From the NCBI GenBank assembly GCA_019744845.1, contig JAIETW010000001.1, positions 354,859 through 418,858 on the forward strand: 64,000 bases of DNA, given 5' to 3'. The stretch's first letter is position 1. Every line of letters starts with the position of its first letter. Origin of the DNA: Patescibacteria group bacterium. Lineage in GTDB: Bacteria; Patescibacteriota; Minisyncoccia; Phycocordibacterales; Phycocordibacteraceae. Shown one piece after another: positions 46,596-58,215 of this stretch. The position numbers were made by a program, and so were the translations under genes. Below the pieces are notes generated by a model that was given only the letters and a program-made list of their open reading frames with translations, ran no database searches and was not told where the DNA came from.

Positions 46596-46704
46596 TTAAA
46601 AGCCCGCGGCGCGGGATAGGAGAAATCTATAGGAAATGGGCCTTAGTGTCAAATTTATGCTTTCTTCATCTCCCCTACTCTAGGCTGAGGTACACTATAC
46701 CTAT

Positions 46705-47496
46705 ATGAAAACTGACCCAAAACTCCTTATCGGCGGCGTGATCCTTATTCTTCTTATCCTCGGCGGTGTCCTTTGGTACATGGCAAGTAACCCTGCCCCA
46801 GAACCGAGTGAGTTCCCTGAGGTCCCCGCAGGGCCTTCCCTAGGACAAAGCGAGCGTATATCAGAGAACGGCCAGTATCACGAGGTATCGGCCGAATATC
46901 CTGCCACAACCCCGCTACGAGCCTCTGCAGGGGCTGAGGCGGATGCTAGAGCGGTAGCCGCCTTCCGCGCCTTTGAAGAGAGAACTATTGAAACCTTTAA
47001 GGAGCAGAGTGGACTCAGTACTCTTACACAGGAAGACATAGAGATGTTTGGACTGGGGAATGAGCGCAAATATGCCATAGGCATTGACTACGAGATGTAT
47101 CAGTCAGATGCCACGGTGTCCTATGTGTTCATGATCTATGAAGATACGCTTGGTGCGCATCCAAACGGCTACTACCGCACGTTCACCTTTGATCTTGAGA
47201 CCGGCGCAGGACTCCAGCTCTCCCAACTCTTCGCACCAGGAGTGGACTACCTTGCCGTACTCTCTCAGAAATCTCGCGAGGCACTCTACACACAGCTCGG
47301 AGAGAACGCGGTCTCTGACATGCTTGAAGCGGGCACCACCCCTGACGAAGATAACTATCAGAACTTCTATCTGGAAGGAGAGGCGCTCGTGATTGTCTTC
47401 GCTCCTTATCAGGTAGGTCCATGGGCCATTGGCACGCAGGAAGTGAGGATCCCAAAAACTGAACTCTCGGGAATGCTCAAGGCCGAGTATCAGTAA
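46705..47496 (+). CDS. Membrane-anchored DUF3298/DUF4163-type (RsiV/PdaC-like) domain protein, inserted between rpsS and rplB on the opposite strand
   Basis: N-terminal TM helix. The C-terminal YEDTLGAHPNGYYRTFTFDLETGAGLQLSQLF segment matches the DUF3298 signature. Confidence 0.5.
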   Translation: MKTDPKLLIGGVILILLILGGVLWYMASNPAPEPSEFPEVPAGPSLGQSERISENGQYHEVSAEYPATTPLRASAGAEADARAVAAFRAFEERTIETFKEQSGLSTLTQEDIEMFGLGNERKYAIGIDYEMYQSDATVSYVFMIYEDTLGAHPNGYYRTFTFDLETGAGLQLSQLFAPGVDYLAVLSQKSREALYTQLGENAVSDMLEAGTTPDEDNYQNFYLEGEALVIVFAPYQVGPWAIGTQEVRIPKTELSGMLKAEYQ

Positions 47497-47498
47497 GA

Positions 47499-47529
47499 AA
47501 AAGCCCCGGGATACTCGGGGCTTTTTTAG
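47499..47529. terminator. Bidirectional intrinsic terminator (agccccg-ggatact-cggggct + tttttt)
   Basis: GC-rich 7 bp stem with A-run and T-run, 3' of the 46705 gene. Confidence 0.65.
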
Positions 47530-47849
47530 TCTTTGAAAATATCGTCTGCAGTACCAAAAGATTCTGCGGTACCGAAGGCTGGGGGCGTACCCCCTGGTAC
47601 TTGCGATTCAGTTGTAAATAAACCTGGTGCAGGGAGATCCCCTCCAAGCGCTGCAAGACGTGCACGCACTTCCTCAAGAGCAGCAGCATCTGCGGCGACG
47701 TCTGGCGCCTCTGCAATTGGACGCTCTTCTTCCAAGTCGGTGGTTGCGGGCCATGGCTTATACGGTCCGTCAGGTCCCTGCGGTGCTCCAGCAGGAACAT
47801 GATATCCGTCGGGCCCTTGGCGCATGCCTCCCATATGTCTGTAGCGTAG

Positions 47850-47873
47850 CAACAAAAAAGACCGGGTCAAGCC
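47850..47873. terminator. Intrinsic terminator immediately 3' of rplB (gaccggg-tcaag-cccggtc flanked by aaaaaa and tttt)
   Basis: The hairpin sits 12 nt beyond the rplB stop. It separates the rplC-rplB unit from rpsS and downstream genes. Confidence 0.65.
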
Positions 47874-47884
47874 CGGTCTTTTGA

Positions 47885-55262: not shown

Positions 55263-55274
55263 CCACCCGATTAC

Positions 55275-57422
55275 TTATTTGCGAGCTGCAATAATATCGT
55301 TGGCAACGTTCTGGGGCACCACCTCGTAGTGATCAAACTCCATGGTCATGGAGCCGCGTCCTTCTGTCATAGAGCGAAGGCTCGTCGTGTAACCGAACAT
55401 TTCAGAGAGCGGCACCTTGGCGTGAATCGCCTTGTTCATACCGCGATCCTCCATGCTTTCAATGGCACCACGCTTTCCTGAGAGAGAACCGGTGATGTCA
55501 CCCATGAACTGCTCAGGAACCACCACTTCTACGTTCATGATCGGCTCAAGAATCACTGGCTTTGCCTGCTTGGCACCATCCTGAAAGGCCATGGACGCCG
55601 CAATCTTGAAGGCGATTTCTGAAGAGTCCACATCGTGGAAGGAGCCGTCGTAGAGATTTACCGACACATCCACCATTGGGTAGCCGGCGAGAATACCGCG
55701 GGTCATTGCCTCGCGAATACCCTTTTCAATTGGGTTGATGAACTCACCTGGAATGGCACCTCCCTTAATGTTGTTGATGAACTCAAAGTGATCCTCACGA
55801 GTCACGTTCTTCGCAACCTTTGCATCAGGATCAACTGGCTCAAGGTGTTTCATCTTAAGCTTCACGTGACCGTACTGACCTTTACCTCCCGTCTGCTTGA
55901 TGTACTTACCTTCCACATCAGAAGAACCAAGGATGGTTTCGCGGTATGCCACCTGTGGCTTACCGACGTTTGCAACGACGTTGAACTCGCGCTTCATACG
56001 ATCCACGAGAATCTCAAGGTGAAGCTCACCCATTCCTGAAATGATGGTCTCGGCAGTCTCCTCGTCAGAGGTCACCTTGAAGGTTGGGTCCTCATCCGCA
56101 AGCTTACGAATGGCCATGCCCATCTTCTCCTGGTCAGCCTTGGTAGCTGGCTCAATGCGAAGGGATACCACTGGCTCAGGGAACTTAATCTGCTCAAGGA
56201 TAATTGGATTATTCTCATCACAAAGAGTGTGAGACGTCTTCGTGTCCTTAAGACCCACCATAGCGGCGATCTCTCCGGTGAACACCTGCTCCACTTCCTC
56301 ACGCTTATCAGCCTGAAGACGCACGATACGTCCGACACGCTCTTTGGTGCCCGTGTTTGCGTTGTAGACGTATGAGCCGGCAGTGACGGATCCTGCGTAC
56401 ACACGGAAGAAGGTAAGTGCTCCCACGAATGGGTCAGTCTGAAGCTTAAAGGCAAGTGCCGTAAATGGCTCCTTGTCGTCTGCGCTGCGCATCACCTCTT
56501 CACCTGTGTTTGGATTCGTACCCTTCACTGGAGGAAGATCAAGTGGAGATGGGAGGTAATCAACCACGGCATCAAGCACGAGCTGCACACCCTTGTTCTT
56601 AAGGGCAGAGCCGGTGTAGACCGGGAAGATCTGGTTGCCAATCACTGCCTTACGAAGGATGGCCTTAAGCTCGTCTAGCATTGGCTCCTTTCCTTCAAGG
56701 TACGCATTCATAGCCGCATCGTCGTTTTCAACGATACGCTCCACAAATTCTGCACGATATTTCTTTGCCTCTTCTACATACTGCTCAGGCACTTCGCCCT
56801 CGTTTACTTCCTCACCCATACTTCCAGAGAAGGTGTATGCCTTCATGGAAAGGAGGTCAATCACTCCCTCAAAATCACCCTCTGCACCCATAGGGATCTG
56901 TGCGCGGATCGCCTTCTTGCTCAAACGATCAAGAATAGACTGGTAGGAATCCTCAAAAGAGGCGCCGGTACGGTCAAGCTTGTTGATGAAACAGACACGA
57001 GGCACCCCTGCTTCGTCGGCATAGCGCCAGTTGGTTTCAGACTGTGGCTCCACGCCAGCCACGCCGTCAAACACCACGATTGCACCGTCAAGCACACGCA
57101 TAGAGCGCTTCACCTCGGCGGTGAAGTCAATGTGTCCTGGGGTGTCAATGATGTTGAAGCGATACTTCTTAGACGTATCCTTCTTGTCCTTCTCCTGGCT
57201 CTTAGACCAGAAACAGGTGATAGCCGCGGCGGTAATAGTGATACCGCGCTCGCGCTCCTGCTCCATCCAGTCAGTGGTGGTCTCTCCTTCGTGCACCTCT
57301 CCGATCTTGTGCTGGGAGCCAGTGTAGAAGAGCACACGCTCTGAGGTCGTGGTCTTTCCGGCGTCAACGTGGGCGACGATACCGAAGTTACGTACTTTCT
57401 CTAGTGGATAATCGCGATTCAT
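55275..57422 (-). CDS. fusA: Elongation factor G
   Basis: MNRDYPLEKVRNFGIVAHVDAGKTTTSERVLFYTG ... Start at MNRDYP (cat at 57420-57422). Confidence 0.95.
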   Translation of the reverse strand: MNRDYPLEKVRNFGIVAHVDAGKTTTSERVLFYTGSQHKIGEVHEGETTTDWMEQERERGITITAAAITCFWSKSQEKDKKDTSKKYRFNIIDTPGHIDFTAEVKRSMRVLDGAIVVFDGVAGVEPQSETNWRYADEAGVPRVCFINKLDRTGASFEDSYQSILDRLSKKAIRAQIPMGAEGDFEGVIDLLSMKAYTFSGSMGEEVNEGEVPEQYVEEAKKYRAEFVERIVENDDAAMNAYLEGKEPMLDELKAILRKAVIGNQIFPVYTGSALKNKGVQLVLDAVVDYLPSPLDLPPVKGTNPNTGEEVMRSADDKEPFTALAFKLQTDPFVGALTFFRVYAGSVTAGSYVYNANTGTKERVGRIVRLQADKREEVEQVFTGEIAAMVGLKDTKTSHTLCDENNPIILEQIKFPEPVVSLRIEPATKADQEKMGMAIRKLADEDPTFKVTSDEETAETIISGMGELHLEILVDRMKREFNVVANVGKPQVAYRETILGSSDVEGKYIKQTGGKGQYGHVKLKMKHLEPVDPDAKVAKNVTREDHFEFINNIKGGAIPGEFINPIEKGIREAMTRGILAGYPMVDVSVNLYDGSFHDVDSSEIAFKIAASMAFQDGAKQAKPVILEPIMNVEVVVPEQFMGDITGSLSGKRGAIESMEDRGMNKAIHAKVPLSEMFGYTTSLRSMTEGRGSMTMEFDHYEVVPQNVANDIIAARK

Positions 57423-57514
57423 ATAGGTAGTGGGTAAATAAAAAGGCGCGTGATGCGTTACTTGAAAGATACTGAAAGTAGACCCAAAAAGCAATGTTAC
57501 GCTAGTATGACCCT

Positions 57515-58189
57515 ATGACTGAACGACCGACAGGCCTTGACCAACACTTGCGAGAGAGGTTGTGGCGCATAGAGGAGAAAGTCCAAGAAGTGCTTCGTAT
57601 ATACCGTCTTCTGAGGGAACGGTTCCAGGCTGATGTAGAAGCTCTTGCTGCTGGACGTGAGAGCAACGATGATGATTCTAGGTACTTCACGCTGGACGAA
57701 AGAGAGAGGAAATACCGCGCAGACCGAGCTGCGTTACAAAAGGAGGCTGCAGCAATGCTCGCTGATGTATTCCACGACCTGACACAGGCCTCTTGGGAAC
57801 ATAGTGATCTTGGAACCTCCGAAAGTTACTCAGCCATGGAAACATTTCACCTCCCGCTCGGTCGTGGGTTCCGACTGCGCTTATACCACGGACGCATGTA
57901 CCCTGTGCGAGATAGAGGGCGCCAATATGCGACCGAACGTTGGAATCTGAGCCTCGACGAAGCTAACGTGCCGTCAAATGACAACGCAGGAAGTACAGAA
58001 GAGGCGTTTGCATATGAAGATGTCCCGAAAGACAACGCTGACTTTCTTATGGGAACCCGCGTCAACTTTGAAACAACGACTGATCGTATGAACATAGACG
58101 ATCTTGCACCCAAGGGAATACTTGCAGGCTTCAAGAAGGCTAGATTTGAACGAGCACTTAAGGAATTCAAACGTACACACGGATTGTAA
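57515..58189 (+). CDS. Hypothetical soluble protein inserted (opposite strand) between fusA and rpsG
   Basis: 224 aa ORF with an Arg/Glu-rich helical N-terminus and no recognisable motif. Confidence 0.4.
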   Translation: MTERPTGLDQHLRERLWRIEEKVQEVLRIYRLLRERFQADVEALAAGRESNDDDSRYFTLDERERKYRADRAALQKEAAAMLADVFHDLTQASWEHSDLGTSESYSAMETFHLPLGRGFRLRLYHGRMYPVRDRGRQYATERWNLSLDEANVPSNDNAGSTEEAFAYEDVPKDNADFLMGTRVNFETTTDRMNIDDLAPKGILAGFKKARFERALKEFKRTHGL

Positions 58190-58213
58190 AAACCGCCCTC
58201 TCGGGCGGCTGTG
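58188..58213. terminator. Intrinsic terminator 3' of rpsG (ccgccc-tctc-gggcgg preceded by aaaaa)
   Basis: The hairpin follows the rpsG stop. The U-run is on the minus strand. Confidence 0.6.
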
Positions 58214-58215
58214 TG

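Follow-up and report, generated by a model that had tools for sequence, protein, structure and literature searches.

A ribosomal gene row in five blocks: apparently permissive gaps and changing cargo in the str/S10 cluster of a Patescibacteria bacterium

Introduction

The str/S10 row of ribosomal protein (r-protein) genes is a textbook case of a gene order frozen by selection, and is commonly used as a synteny anchor and as a phylogenetic marker block. How can such a row keep its order and yet be interrupted by genes of other kinds? The question is raised by a stretch of 64,000 nucleotides from a Patescibacteria group bacterium (GenBank assembly GCA_019744845.1, contig JAIETW010000001.1, positions 354,859 to 418,858 of the forward strand), which we refer to as the window. 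A preliminary description of the window had reported that inserted genes break the row at four points, and had offered two explanations: a lineage-specific set of translation-associated accessory factors, or a hotspot of gene insertion. The four interruptions are borne out by our map of open reading frames (ORFs) and by the translations. We argue that the row is likely made up of transcription units that are autonomous and regulated separately, with spacers in which genes can be gained, lost and replaced. The organism is a candidate phyla radiation (CPR) bacterium of the Parcubacteria/Paceibacteria type, and its nearest relatives by ribosomal protein L4 (at 65% identity or less) are metagenome-assembled genomes (MAGs) of Parcubacteria, Paceibacterota and other Patescibacteria.

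Five blocks and four gaps

The genes for S12-S7-EF-G-EF-Tu-S10-L3-L4-L23-L2-S19-L22-S3-L16-L29-S17-L14 and onwards are all present, in order and on the minus strand, as had been described for the part from S12 to S19, and the ribosomal super-cluster extends over 37.7-59.1 kb of the window. The contiguity and short intercistronic spacers expected of str and S10 operons are not found; instead, four gaps of 793-1673 bp divide the row into five blocks, namely rpsL-rpsG, fusA, tuf-rpsJ, rplC-rplD-rplW-rplB and rpsS…map (Table 1). The rpsG/fusA gap (793 bp) holds an ORF of 224 amino acids (aa) on the opposite strand, as previously described. In the fusA/tuf gap (1673 bp) there are a 47-aa basic ORF on the plus strand, a 46-aa acidic ORF and a 376-aa protein, and in the rpsJ/rplC gap (1573 bp) a 320-aa protein and a 140-aa Cupin_2 protein. 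The rplB/rpsS gap (1295 bp) holds a small Pro/Gly/acidic ORF and a DUF3298 protein on the opposite strand. The two small conserved ORFs in the fusA/tuf gap are additions to the preliminary description, as is a fifth indel upstream of rpsL.

Since the sequence comes from a MAG, and conserved r-protein regions can misassemble between strains, the layout might be suspected of being an artefact of assembly or binning, with foreign DNA joined into chimeric contigs. We give this explanation next to no credence. The same order and inserts occur in independent assemblies from several studies (the layout is the same in ENA ERZ1292624, GCA_964357595.1, GCA_018062165.1, GCA_020050275.1, Logan SRR11088468 and JGI 3300015360), GC content is uniform over the region and gives no foreign signal in the inserts, and the predicted promoters, leaders and terminators abut the inserts precisely.

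The same junctions are open in relatives

The proteins of the window were mapped onto 80 related loci (L001-L080), and every junction was measured. The four junctions range from ~10 bp to 7.5 kb among these relatives. The fusA/tuf junction is the widest by median (1142 bp, maximum 7510 bp) and exceeds 300 bp in 40 of 46 loci, followed by rplB/rpsS (median 831 bp, maximum 7355 bp; 41 of 62 loci), rpsJ/rplC (median 222 bp, maximum 4792 bp; 27 of 68) and rpsG/fusA (median 166 bp, maximum 2316 bp; 14 of 34). The ten other junctions, measured as far as rplN, mostly span 10-70 bp, and each of them passes 300 bp in just 0-7 loci. For example, rpsL and rpsG are never more than 226 bp apart in the 32 relatives measured, tuf and rpsJ form a tight pair (more than 300 bp in only 4 of 66), and the internal junctions of rplC-rplD-rplW-rplB almost never reach such widths in ~70 relatives. 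Breaks at rplB/rpsS and rpsG/fusA are seen only among L001-L060, the closer relatives; in L061-L080, which belong to more distant classes, both junctions are tight, while fusA/tuf is still wide. Because the same junctions are expanded across relatives, the break points are, on this comparison, old and lineage-wide rather than events of this genome.

What fills the junctions changes from genome to genome. A crude rule that takes the longest ORF yielded 227 ORFs of 90 aa or more in the relatives' gaps; they group into 194 clusters, 179 of them singletons. Among the inserts of the window, only the DUF3298 protein has homologs in the 80 loci (L001, L003 and L006). Pfam searches of the 150 longest cargo ORFs returned ordinary genes, such as those for SAICAR synthetase, OMP decarboxylase, phosphoribosyltransferases (PRTases), amino-acid kinase, PPDK, alanine racemase and PhoH. 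One family is more stable: a diacylglycerol kinase (DAGK_prokar) is found in 8-9 genomes, always at rplB/rpsS and on the operon strand (L017, L038, L042, L049-L051 and L054-L056), and by this distribution is an insert fixed in one subclade, at the junction that DUF3298 occupies in the window. These comparisons fit the second of the two explanations first offered, a hotspot, given that the same four junctions are wide in most of the 80 relatives, with unrelated cargo, and that cargo differs even where r-proteins are 95-100% identical.

A hotspot may or may not have a dedicated machinery. If an active insertion system of the site-specific kind (with an integrase, a transposon or something integron-like) used the junctions for attachment, one could understand why the same four positions are reused in many genomes, why non-homologous genes occupy the same slot of near-identical genomes, and why cargo units look like compact cassettes of predicted promoter, ORF and terminator. 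The hallmarks of such a system were not found, though, and we consider it improbable. No direct or inverted repeats flanking the inserts of the window were found, and no tRNA or tmRNA gene in the region of the gaps; no integrase, transposase or recombinase is among the top 25 Pfam or PHROG families listed for the 150 cargo ORFs; and the inserts are without PADLOC hits. Cargo also lies on both strands, and the gaps are very different in size and gene number. In these searches, the inserts show none of the usual marks of a mobile element, genomic island or integron cassette (repeats or att sites, tRNA, integrase or transposase), and the insertion mechanism suggested earlier did not materialize in the searches.

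Cargo turnover between close relatives

The closest comparison is with L082 (GCA_964357595.1), whose r-proteins are 95-100% identical to those of the window, with ~93% DNA identity. Even at this distance, three gaps of L082 differ from those of the window, and the 376-aa and DUF3298 genes are retained. Where the window has the 224-aa gene, L082 carries an unrelated ORF of 198 aa with the same orientation (BLASTP E=0.63), and the replacement is accompanied by a different rpsG terminator hairpin. It has no cupin gene, the region of the small ORF in the rplB/rpsS gap cannot be aligned between the two genomes, and its 320-aa protein is only 57% identical. The breakpoints between the two genomes coincide exactly with terminators and promoters, as in the rpsJ/rplC gap, where identity falls at the rpsJ terminator and recovers at the -35 element of the rplC promoter. 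Within block 5, by comparison, identity to L081 is 93% at the nucleotide level, with zero indels.

To take the 57% identity of the 320-aa protein as proof that its allele was replaced would be too strong, and we base the claim instead on distances among three taxa. Every r-protein and DUF3298 group the window with L082, leaving L083 outside, and the 320-aa distances conflict with this, with identities of 0.57 (window-L082), 0.59 (window-L083) and 0.80 (L082-L083). Because the distances are incongruent, the window's 320-aa allele and the adjacent cupin gene would be a cassette that was either replaced or exceptionally accelerated.

Judged by their distribution, the inserts are of mixed ages. 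DUF3298 is common to relatives whose L4 identity is 55-65%, a narrow clade has the 376-aa gene, and only this genome has the 224-aa gene, the cupin and its particular 320-aa allele. The synteny comparison proposed at the outset gives a divided answer, the DUF3298 and 376-aa genes being shared and the 224-aa and cupin genes not, and the suggestion that the insertions are recent is right for some of the cargo and wrong for the break points.

A fifth variable slot may lie upstream of rpsL, where L082 is without a ~470-bp segment carrying a 150-aa ORF and has a spacer of 72 bp. The ORF is Pfam negative and free of codon bias, with an effective number of codons (Nc) of 61, and it may also be spurious.

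Terminators at the block ends

Terminator-like sites are about twice as frequent in the region as in shuffled sequence (29 vs 14.4±3.5). At five sites, a GC-rich stem-loop followed by a U tract lies just past a stop codon, as expected of an intrinsic terminator, with folding energies of -15.6 to -22.5 kcal/mol and z scores from -3.5 to -4.7. Terminators had been described past rpsJ, fusA and rpsG, and at all three a hairpin and U tract are present. The fusA hairpin also closes the convergent 47-aa ORF; only four U follow the stem on the plus strand, so termination in that direction is less certain. In L082, the rplB terminator and the bidirectional terminator at 47500-47532 are both conserved, the rpsJ terminator keeps its stem with an altered loop, and the different hairpin past rpsG occupies the same position, again with a U tract. 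Among relatives with wide gaps, a terminator-like hairpin follows the upstream gene in 22 of 29 cases at rpsJ, 32 of 43 at rplB, 24 of 41 at fusA and 9 of 15 at rpsG, compared with 11 of 502 intragenic controls.

Some hairpins that had been read as terminators of the inserts are better placed in leaders of the ribosomal genes. The DUF3298 insert had been given terminators at both ends, and those past rplB and at 47500-47532 stand, whereas the hairpin before rpsS (46615-46603) appears to be part of a leader. The hairpin attributed to the 376-aa gene (53712-53665) also has the form of an intrinsic terminator, but it lies past the tuf promoter-like site and is conserved where its U tract is lost, and it is reassigned to the tuf leader, whether or not it affects read-through. 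More generally, insulation of every insert was claimed, and what the predicted terminators would insulate is the blocks; the hairpins before rplC (50486-50467) and rpsS look like leader elements.

Promoters and leader RNAs

Conserved promoter and leader blocks are found upstream of rplC, rpsS, fusA and tuf in many relatives. A strict promoter scan finds matches upstream of tuf in 21 of 59 loci, of rpsS in 19 of 63 and of rpsL in 5 of 32, and upstream of internal genes in 0-1 each. The scan misses the rplC and fusA promoters (-35 elements TTGCAT and TTGCTT), and for those two conservation was assessed by eye; the fusA motif is common to L082, L001, L006, L009 and others. In L024, the rpsS promoter and leader are retained in a 79-bp spacer that has no cargo.

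The rplC leader contains a conserved motif. This motif is an irregular hairpin containing (G/C)CUAYGUAC, a variable stem-loop and GGACCAAUGG(C/G), followed in the window by a GC hairpin and U tract that lies 10 nt before the ATG. In an alignment of 17 sequences, 91% of cells pair, compared with 76% in shuffles, and covariation is 0.386 compared with 0.135; none of 500 shuffles reaches either value, and slid controls have a covariation of at most 0.15. Changes on both sides are seen in 6 of 11 pairs. A covariance model run over 1.3 Mb, both strands, gave 22 hits from 22 of 85 sources, all directly upstream of rplC and five of them from outside the seed. Where the rpsJ-rplC gap is known, all hits occur at gaps of at least 161 bp and none at smaller ones. 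With a covarying structure upstream of r-protein genes, as is characteristic of r-leaders, we regard the rplC leader on comparative grounds as a real RNA motif, and probably an attenuator that responds to an r-protein. L4 is the obvious candidate for its ligand, and we propose it by analogy. Like the L4-responsive S10 leader of Escherichia coli and the L4-Archaeoglobi r-leader, which lies upstream of rplC-rplD-rplW-rplB (Eckert & Weinberg 2020, PMC7247131), it is a structured leader directly upstream of an L4-encoding operon, and the hairpin and U tract between motif and start codon form the layout expected for attenuation. Unlike those leaders, it has a different motif, belongs to the Paceibacteria lineage and is without a match in Rfam 15, which returned nothing at E<=1 for positions 46500-59300.

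At Rfam gathering thresholds, the whole window yields only a tmRNA and two tRNAs. The tmRNA gene is at 21311-21717 (+, 92.7 bits), and a tRNA-Ile gene with anticodon TAT is at 18781-18855 (+).

The tuf leader may be a second regulatory RNA. The tuf promoter-like site begins three bases past the stop codon of the 376-aa gene, and the promoter and leader region is 96% identical to that of L082. The leader hairpin (z=-2.45 in the window) persists in L083 and L001, where the U tract does not. In ~20 relatives, a hairpin with unrelated stems and a conserved apical UUCUCG(C/U)(G/A) is seen 35-125 nt upstream of tuf (loci L018, L019, L026, L029, L032-L034, L036, L043, L045, L047, L048, L051-L053, L059 and L060), flanked by further conserved blocks, GCGCUCUUU and GUGUGCGG. 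No consensus fold of the tuf-leader hairpin came out of an ungapped alignment.

The cargo genes have a promoter signature of another kind, a -10-like TAnnnT placed 6-8 nt before the ATG (TATACT for the 320-aa gene, TATAAT for the cupin, TATACT for the 46-aa ORF and TAGTAT for the 224-aa gene, these four at 6 nt, and TACACT for DUF3298). The signature is found throughout the window, its end lying 5-8 nt (in most cases 6) upstream of the ATG, and it often has an upstream TG (for example at 51979-51984 and 57503-57508, and before the ATGs at 1637-2380(-), 4207(+) and 30459-31142(-)). Because 29% of window ORFs of at least 80 aa have such a box, against 2% of random positions, leaderless transcription seems to be common in this organism.

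The inserted genes

The inserts in the window are ORFans or members of very narrow families, and three of them (the 320-, 376- and 224-aa proteins) are without an assigned function after domain, profile and structure searches. PADLOC, NCBIfam and PHROGs gave no defence, mobile-element or named function for any insert.

Of the inserts, Pfam recognizes only the DUF3298 and Cupin_2 proteins. The description of the former as a DUF3298-like membrane protein holds, at 64.3 bits against the PF11738 cut-off of 24.1, and orthologs occupy this junction, oriented as in the window, in L082 (92%), L083 (~58%), L001, L003 and L006. The DUF3298 protein has a weak likeness to RsiV and the esterase Rv3036c, and equivalence to either was rejected, as the NCBIfam scores are far under the cut-offs. 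The neighbouring small ORF is matched by ORFs of 61 aa in L082 and 78 aa in L083, and resembles the one in L082 at the N-terminus only (52% over 46 aa). The cupin was correctly recognized as such, its Pfam score being above the cut-off; it has no match in L081-L085 and no close relative in JGI metagenome contigs.

The 320-aa protein had been called PRTase-like. It has no Pfam or PDB sequence hits, a PDB profile search gave nothing relevant, and its AF2 model, with a predicted local distance difference test (pLDDT) score of 69.6, has no Foldseek match in the PDB at E<=0.001, only generic Rossmann-like folds at E>0.01 and uracil phosphoribosyltransferase (UPRTase) at rank 39. Pfam, Foldseek and PDB profile thus give no ground for placing it among the type I phosphoribosyltransferases. 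Two distant relatives have faint Pribosyltran/UPRTase hits (E=0.018-0.094, below cut-off), and these, with a motif that resembles a phosphoribosyl pyrophosphate (PRPP) loop, VLVCTDAVETGTS, make a PRTase-like fold possible, as a weak lead. Among 5.8 billion proteins it has three close homologs, and a set of 1.84 billion representatives gave seven matches. Of the close homologs, the two that were looked up (L081/L082; L083-L085) are encoded between rpsJ and rplC, and a relative at 32% identity adjoins gyrB, away from any ribosomal cluster.

The N-terminus of the 376-aa protein is signal-peptide-like, in keeping with its earlier description as secreted. It has three homologs (91, 65 and 62% identity), and in the two whose context was read (L082 and L086) the gene is between fusA and tuf and accompanied by the 46-aa ORF. 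Pfam, PDB and PDB profile searches gave nothing meaningful, and the AF2 model (pLDDT 58) was too poor for a structure search. A JAB/MPN-like reading of its HTHPSH…SATD motif found support in no search, and we do not claim it. For the 224-aa protein, the sole match among 5.8 billion proteins is itself.

The inserts nevertheless behave as real genes. In comparison with L082, DUF3298 has a ratio of nonsynonymous to synonymous divergence (dN/dS) of 0.068, the 376-aa gene one of 0.084 and the 320-aa gene one of 0.14, by which measure the 376-aa and DUF3298 genes are kept in L082 under purifying selection. Nc is 48-61 for the inserts (about 55 overall), 45-53 for other genes of the window and 36-49 for r-protein genes (39.6 pooled). 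On these two measures (dN/dS 0.07-0.14 and codon usage), the inserts are real but ordinary genes. Synonymous divergence (dS) from L082 is 0.11-0.42 in the r-protein genes, 4-8 times lower than in neighbouring genes (1.4-2.4), which we attribute to selection on codon usage (Nc ~40 vs ~50-55); recent transfer of the whole cluster was considered as the cause and rejected in favour of this explanation. The strong codon bias of the r-protein, EF-Tu and EF-G genes (43942-59093; Nc 36-41, vs ~49-55 for other genes) is unexpected for a presumably slow-growing CPR bacterium.

This brings us to the other explanation first offered, in which the inserts would be lineage-specific accessory factors of translation or the ribosome, recruited for co-regulation. 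Their physical embedding in the r-protein row invites it, as does the retention of the DUF3298, 376-aa and 320-aa genes at the same junctions in close relatives under purifying selection, and cupin-fold enzymes include ribosomal protein hydroxylases. Yet no cargo family is lineage-wide, the 224-aa protein is an ORFan, and the cupin is missing from a near-identical relative. The distant homolog of the 320-aa protein sits beside gyrB and not r-protein genes, the DUF3298 and 376-aa proteins have the look of membrane or secreted proteins, the codon usage of the inserts is unlike that of r-protein genes, and the cargo of relatives consists of ordinary metabolic genes. Predicted terminators and separate promoters would also uncouple the cargo from r-protein transcription. 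We regard this explanation as largely refuted and give it only a very slim chance of being right.

Feature coordinates and neighbouring genes

Table 1. Features of the ribosomal gene row and its gaps, from the rpsL side towards map (positions in the window).
Feature	Position	Strand	Basis and remarks
Possible fifth variable slot: 150-aa ORF upstream of rpsL, next to GDSL lipase gene	59185-59637	+	
rpsL (S12), first gene of block 1	58683..59093	-	translation; 99% identical to L082 ortholog
rpsG (S7), last gene of block 1	58216..58680	-	translation and L082 comparison
Predicted intrinsic terminator past rpsG	58188..58210	-	GCCGCCC-GAGA-GGGCGG then UUUUU; -15.6 kcal/mol, z=-4.7
Insert 4: 224-aa ORFan, convergent with rpsG	57515..58189	+	ORF; -10-like TAGTAT 6 nt before ATG
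fusA promoter-like site TTGCTT-17-TATCTT and short leader, small hairpin and U tract	57423..57494	-	sequence
fusA (EF-G), block 2	55275..57422	-	99% identical to L082; dS=0.33
Predicted terminator past fusA	55222..55259	both	-: -22.5 kcal/mol, z=-4.6; +: -17.8 kcal/mol
47-aa basic small ORF	55087..55230	+	conserved in L082
46-aa acidic small ORF, overlaps start of 376-aa gene (ATGATTAA)	54926..55066	-	conserved in L082 and L086
Insert 3: 376-aa protein, signal-peptide-like N-terminus, HTHPSH…SATD motif	53803..54933	-	ORF; homologs
tuf promoter-like site TTGACC-17-TAGTTT and leader of ~165 nt	53602..53800	-	promoter 53800-53772; hairpin and U tract 53712-53665
tuf (EF-Tu), block 3	52405..53601	-	translation and L082 comparison
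rpsJ (S10), block 3	52030..52386	-	translation and L082 comparison
Predicted intrinsic terminator past rpsJ	51990..52017	-	-21.7 kcal/mol, z=-3.6
Insert 2a: 320-aa protein, Rossmann-like alpha/beta model, VLVCTDAVETGTS motif	51010..51972	-	ORF; homologs; AF2
Insert 2b: 140-aa Cupin_2 protein	50575..50997	-	PF07883, E=4e-8, 33.2 bits vs cut-off 27.2
rplC promoter-like site TTGCAT-17-TATAGT and leader of ~90 nt	50457..50573	-	core 50501-50540
rplC-rplD-rplW-rplB, block 4	47885..50456	-	translation and L082 comparison
Predicted intrinsic terminator past rplB	47850..47882	-	-20.2 kcal/mol, z=-4.4
Insert 1b: small Pro/Gly/acidic ORF, 102 aa from ATG, doubtful	47526..47834	-	ORF
Predicted bidirectional terminator shared by small ORF and DUF3298 gene	47500..47532	both	-17.3 (-), -22.0 (+) kcal/mol
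Insert 1a: membrane-anchored DUF3298 protein, N-terminal transmembrane helix	46705..47496	+	PF11738, E=2e-17
rpsS promoter-like site TTGACA-17-TAGATT, hairpin CCCGC-loop-GCGGG then UUUU	46590..46652	-	conserved in at least 10 relatives, loops vary
rpsS-rplV-rpsC-rplP-rpmC-rpsQ-rplN…rplO-secY-adk-map, block 5	37718..46589	-	uninterrupted
r-proteins with Lys/Ala-rich extensions	46242-46589, 49096-49842, 48737-49090, 52030-52386		

Several r-proteins have Lys/Ala-rich extensions, at the C-terminus of S19 and the N-termini of L4, L23 and S10, relative to the usual bacterial lengths. Downstream of map are ndk and unrelated genes (37055-37660 and below), and the alpha genes infA-rpmJ-rpsM-rpsK-rpsD-rpoA-rplQ are not at the cluster end after map. 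On the upstream side of rpsL, a GDSL lipase gene is accompanied by genes for two hypothetical proteins and for a TraG/VirB4-like P-loop ATPase of 606 aa (61664-63484).

Discussion

Our preferred reading treats the str/S10 row of this Paceibacteria-type lineage as a chain of five autonomous transcription units rather than two long operons. Each unit would have its own sigma-70-like promoter and conserved 5' leader, those of rplC and tuf being structured RNAs, and units 1-4 would each end in an intrinsic terminator. The spacer from a terminator to the next promoter would then be dispensable for the expression of ribosomal genes, and because it is not needed for that expression, DNA inserted there would be tolerated. 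An insertion elsewhere in the row would break co-transcription and be purged by selection. In this way, the four spacers may have gathered compact, self-sufficient genes over time, and exchange would be continuing. In this genome, each cargo gene has a -10-like box of the leaderless type, and each cargo unit ends at a predicted terminator or terminator-like hairpin, either its own or shared with a neighbour. Homologous recombination in the highly conserved flanking ribosomal genes is the most likely route for cargo replacement.

Several points weigh against this reading or restrict it. The activities of promoters, terminators and attenuators have all been read from sequence. Cargo-free relatives seldom have a terminator at the junction (5 of 41 at rpsJ/rplC and 2 of 21 at rplB/rpsS), and because most are without one, the unit boundary may predate the insertions or may have come with them. 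Other syntenic non-ribosomal genes have also diverged strongly from L082 (dS 1.4-2.4, 63-92% aa identity, one at 63%), so that the 57% identity of the 320-aa protein is unexceptional when taken alone; what stands out is the conflict among the three-taxon distances. The crude ORF calling may have introduced spurious singletons into the clusters, and by a hotspot we mean junctions that are variable compared with the others of the r-protein row, rather than with the chromosome at large. As for the route of exchange, the hints are the sharp breakpoints and a slightly raised divergence of rpsG and rplC beside the replaced cassettes, which lend weak support to recombination through the flanks.

The proposed transcription units could be taken a step further, in a direction that we consider speculative and rather unlikely. 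Ribosomal genes might act as universal homology arms, allowing cassette exchange among diverged Paceibacteria at four 'safe-harbour' slots, integron-like and without an integrase. Episymbiotic hosts with tiny genomes could then swap fast-evolving secreted, membrane and orphan proteins with ribosome expression untouched, and the modular design might be held in place by block-specific regulatory RNAs, namely the rplC leader and the tuf-leader hairpin.

Parts of the arrangement have parallels elsewhere. In cyanobacteria, plastids and archaea, it is normal for rpsJ to follow the gene for EF-Tu/EF-1alpha, apart from L3-L4-L23-L2. The window is similar in that tuf-rpsJ is tight and rplC opens a unit of its own, preceded by a separate promoter-like site and leader, and different in that the blocks are adjacent and co-oriented, with cargo wedged between them. 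To our knowledge, the rplB/rpsS and rpsG/fusA breaks are neither part of that arrangement nor known from other groups. Chromosomal hotspots of horizontal gene transfer with core genes on either side are a general concept, and our gaps resemble them in holding variable cargo, often of unknown function, between core genes, in having non-homologous genes share a slot, and in that recombination in conserved flanks is a plausible route of exchange. They differ in that the flanks are ribosomal protein genes, that each gap holds one to few genes, and that no mobile-element genes were found among the frequent cargo families listed.

Insertions between the classical operons and erosion by 'invasion-separation' have been documented in Gammaproteobacteria and Bacilli (PMC8046335; PMC6735719). 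There, unrelated gene sets such as tusDCB, bfd-bfr and nrdHEF are inserted between transcription units with colinear flanks (PMC6735719). The gene set and its order are the same as in the window, and unrelated inserts lie between colinear units in both. However, the insertions detailed in PMC6735719 are between classical operons (rpoBC/str and str/S10), whereas those of the window are at points inside the E. coli str and S10 operons (rpsG/fusA, fusA/tuf, rpsJ/rplC and rplB/rpsS), and all four are open together in the majority of a class, with very fast cargo turnover. Our literature searches returned nothing on four simultaneous breaks, class-wide near-complete cargo turnover or block-specific leaders, and the combination, across a CPR class, appears to be undescribed.

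That a whole CPR class keeps the order of the row and opens it at four fixed points suggests that selection protects the transcription unit rather than the row. The four spacers are, in this sense, a natural experiment that shows where insertions can be tolerated. In work on MAGs, the ribosomal marker contig of these organisms carries strain-variable genes, which could serve as fine-scale markers. Finally, in a group for which almost no gene regulation is known, the conserved leaders of rplC and tuf provide candidates for regulatory RNAs.

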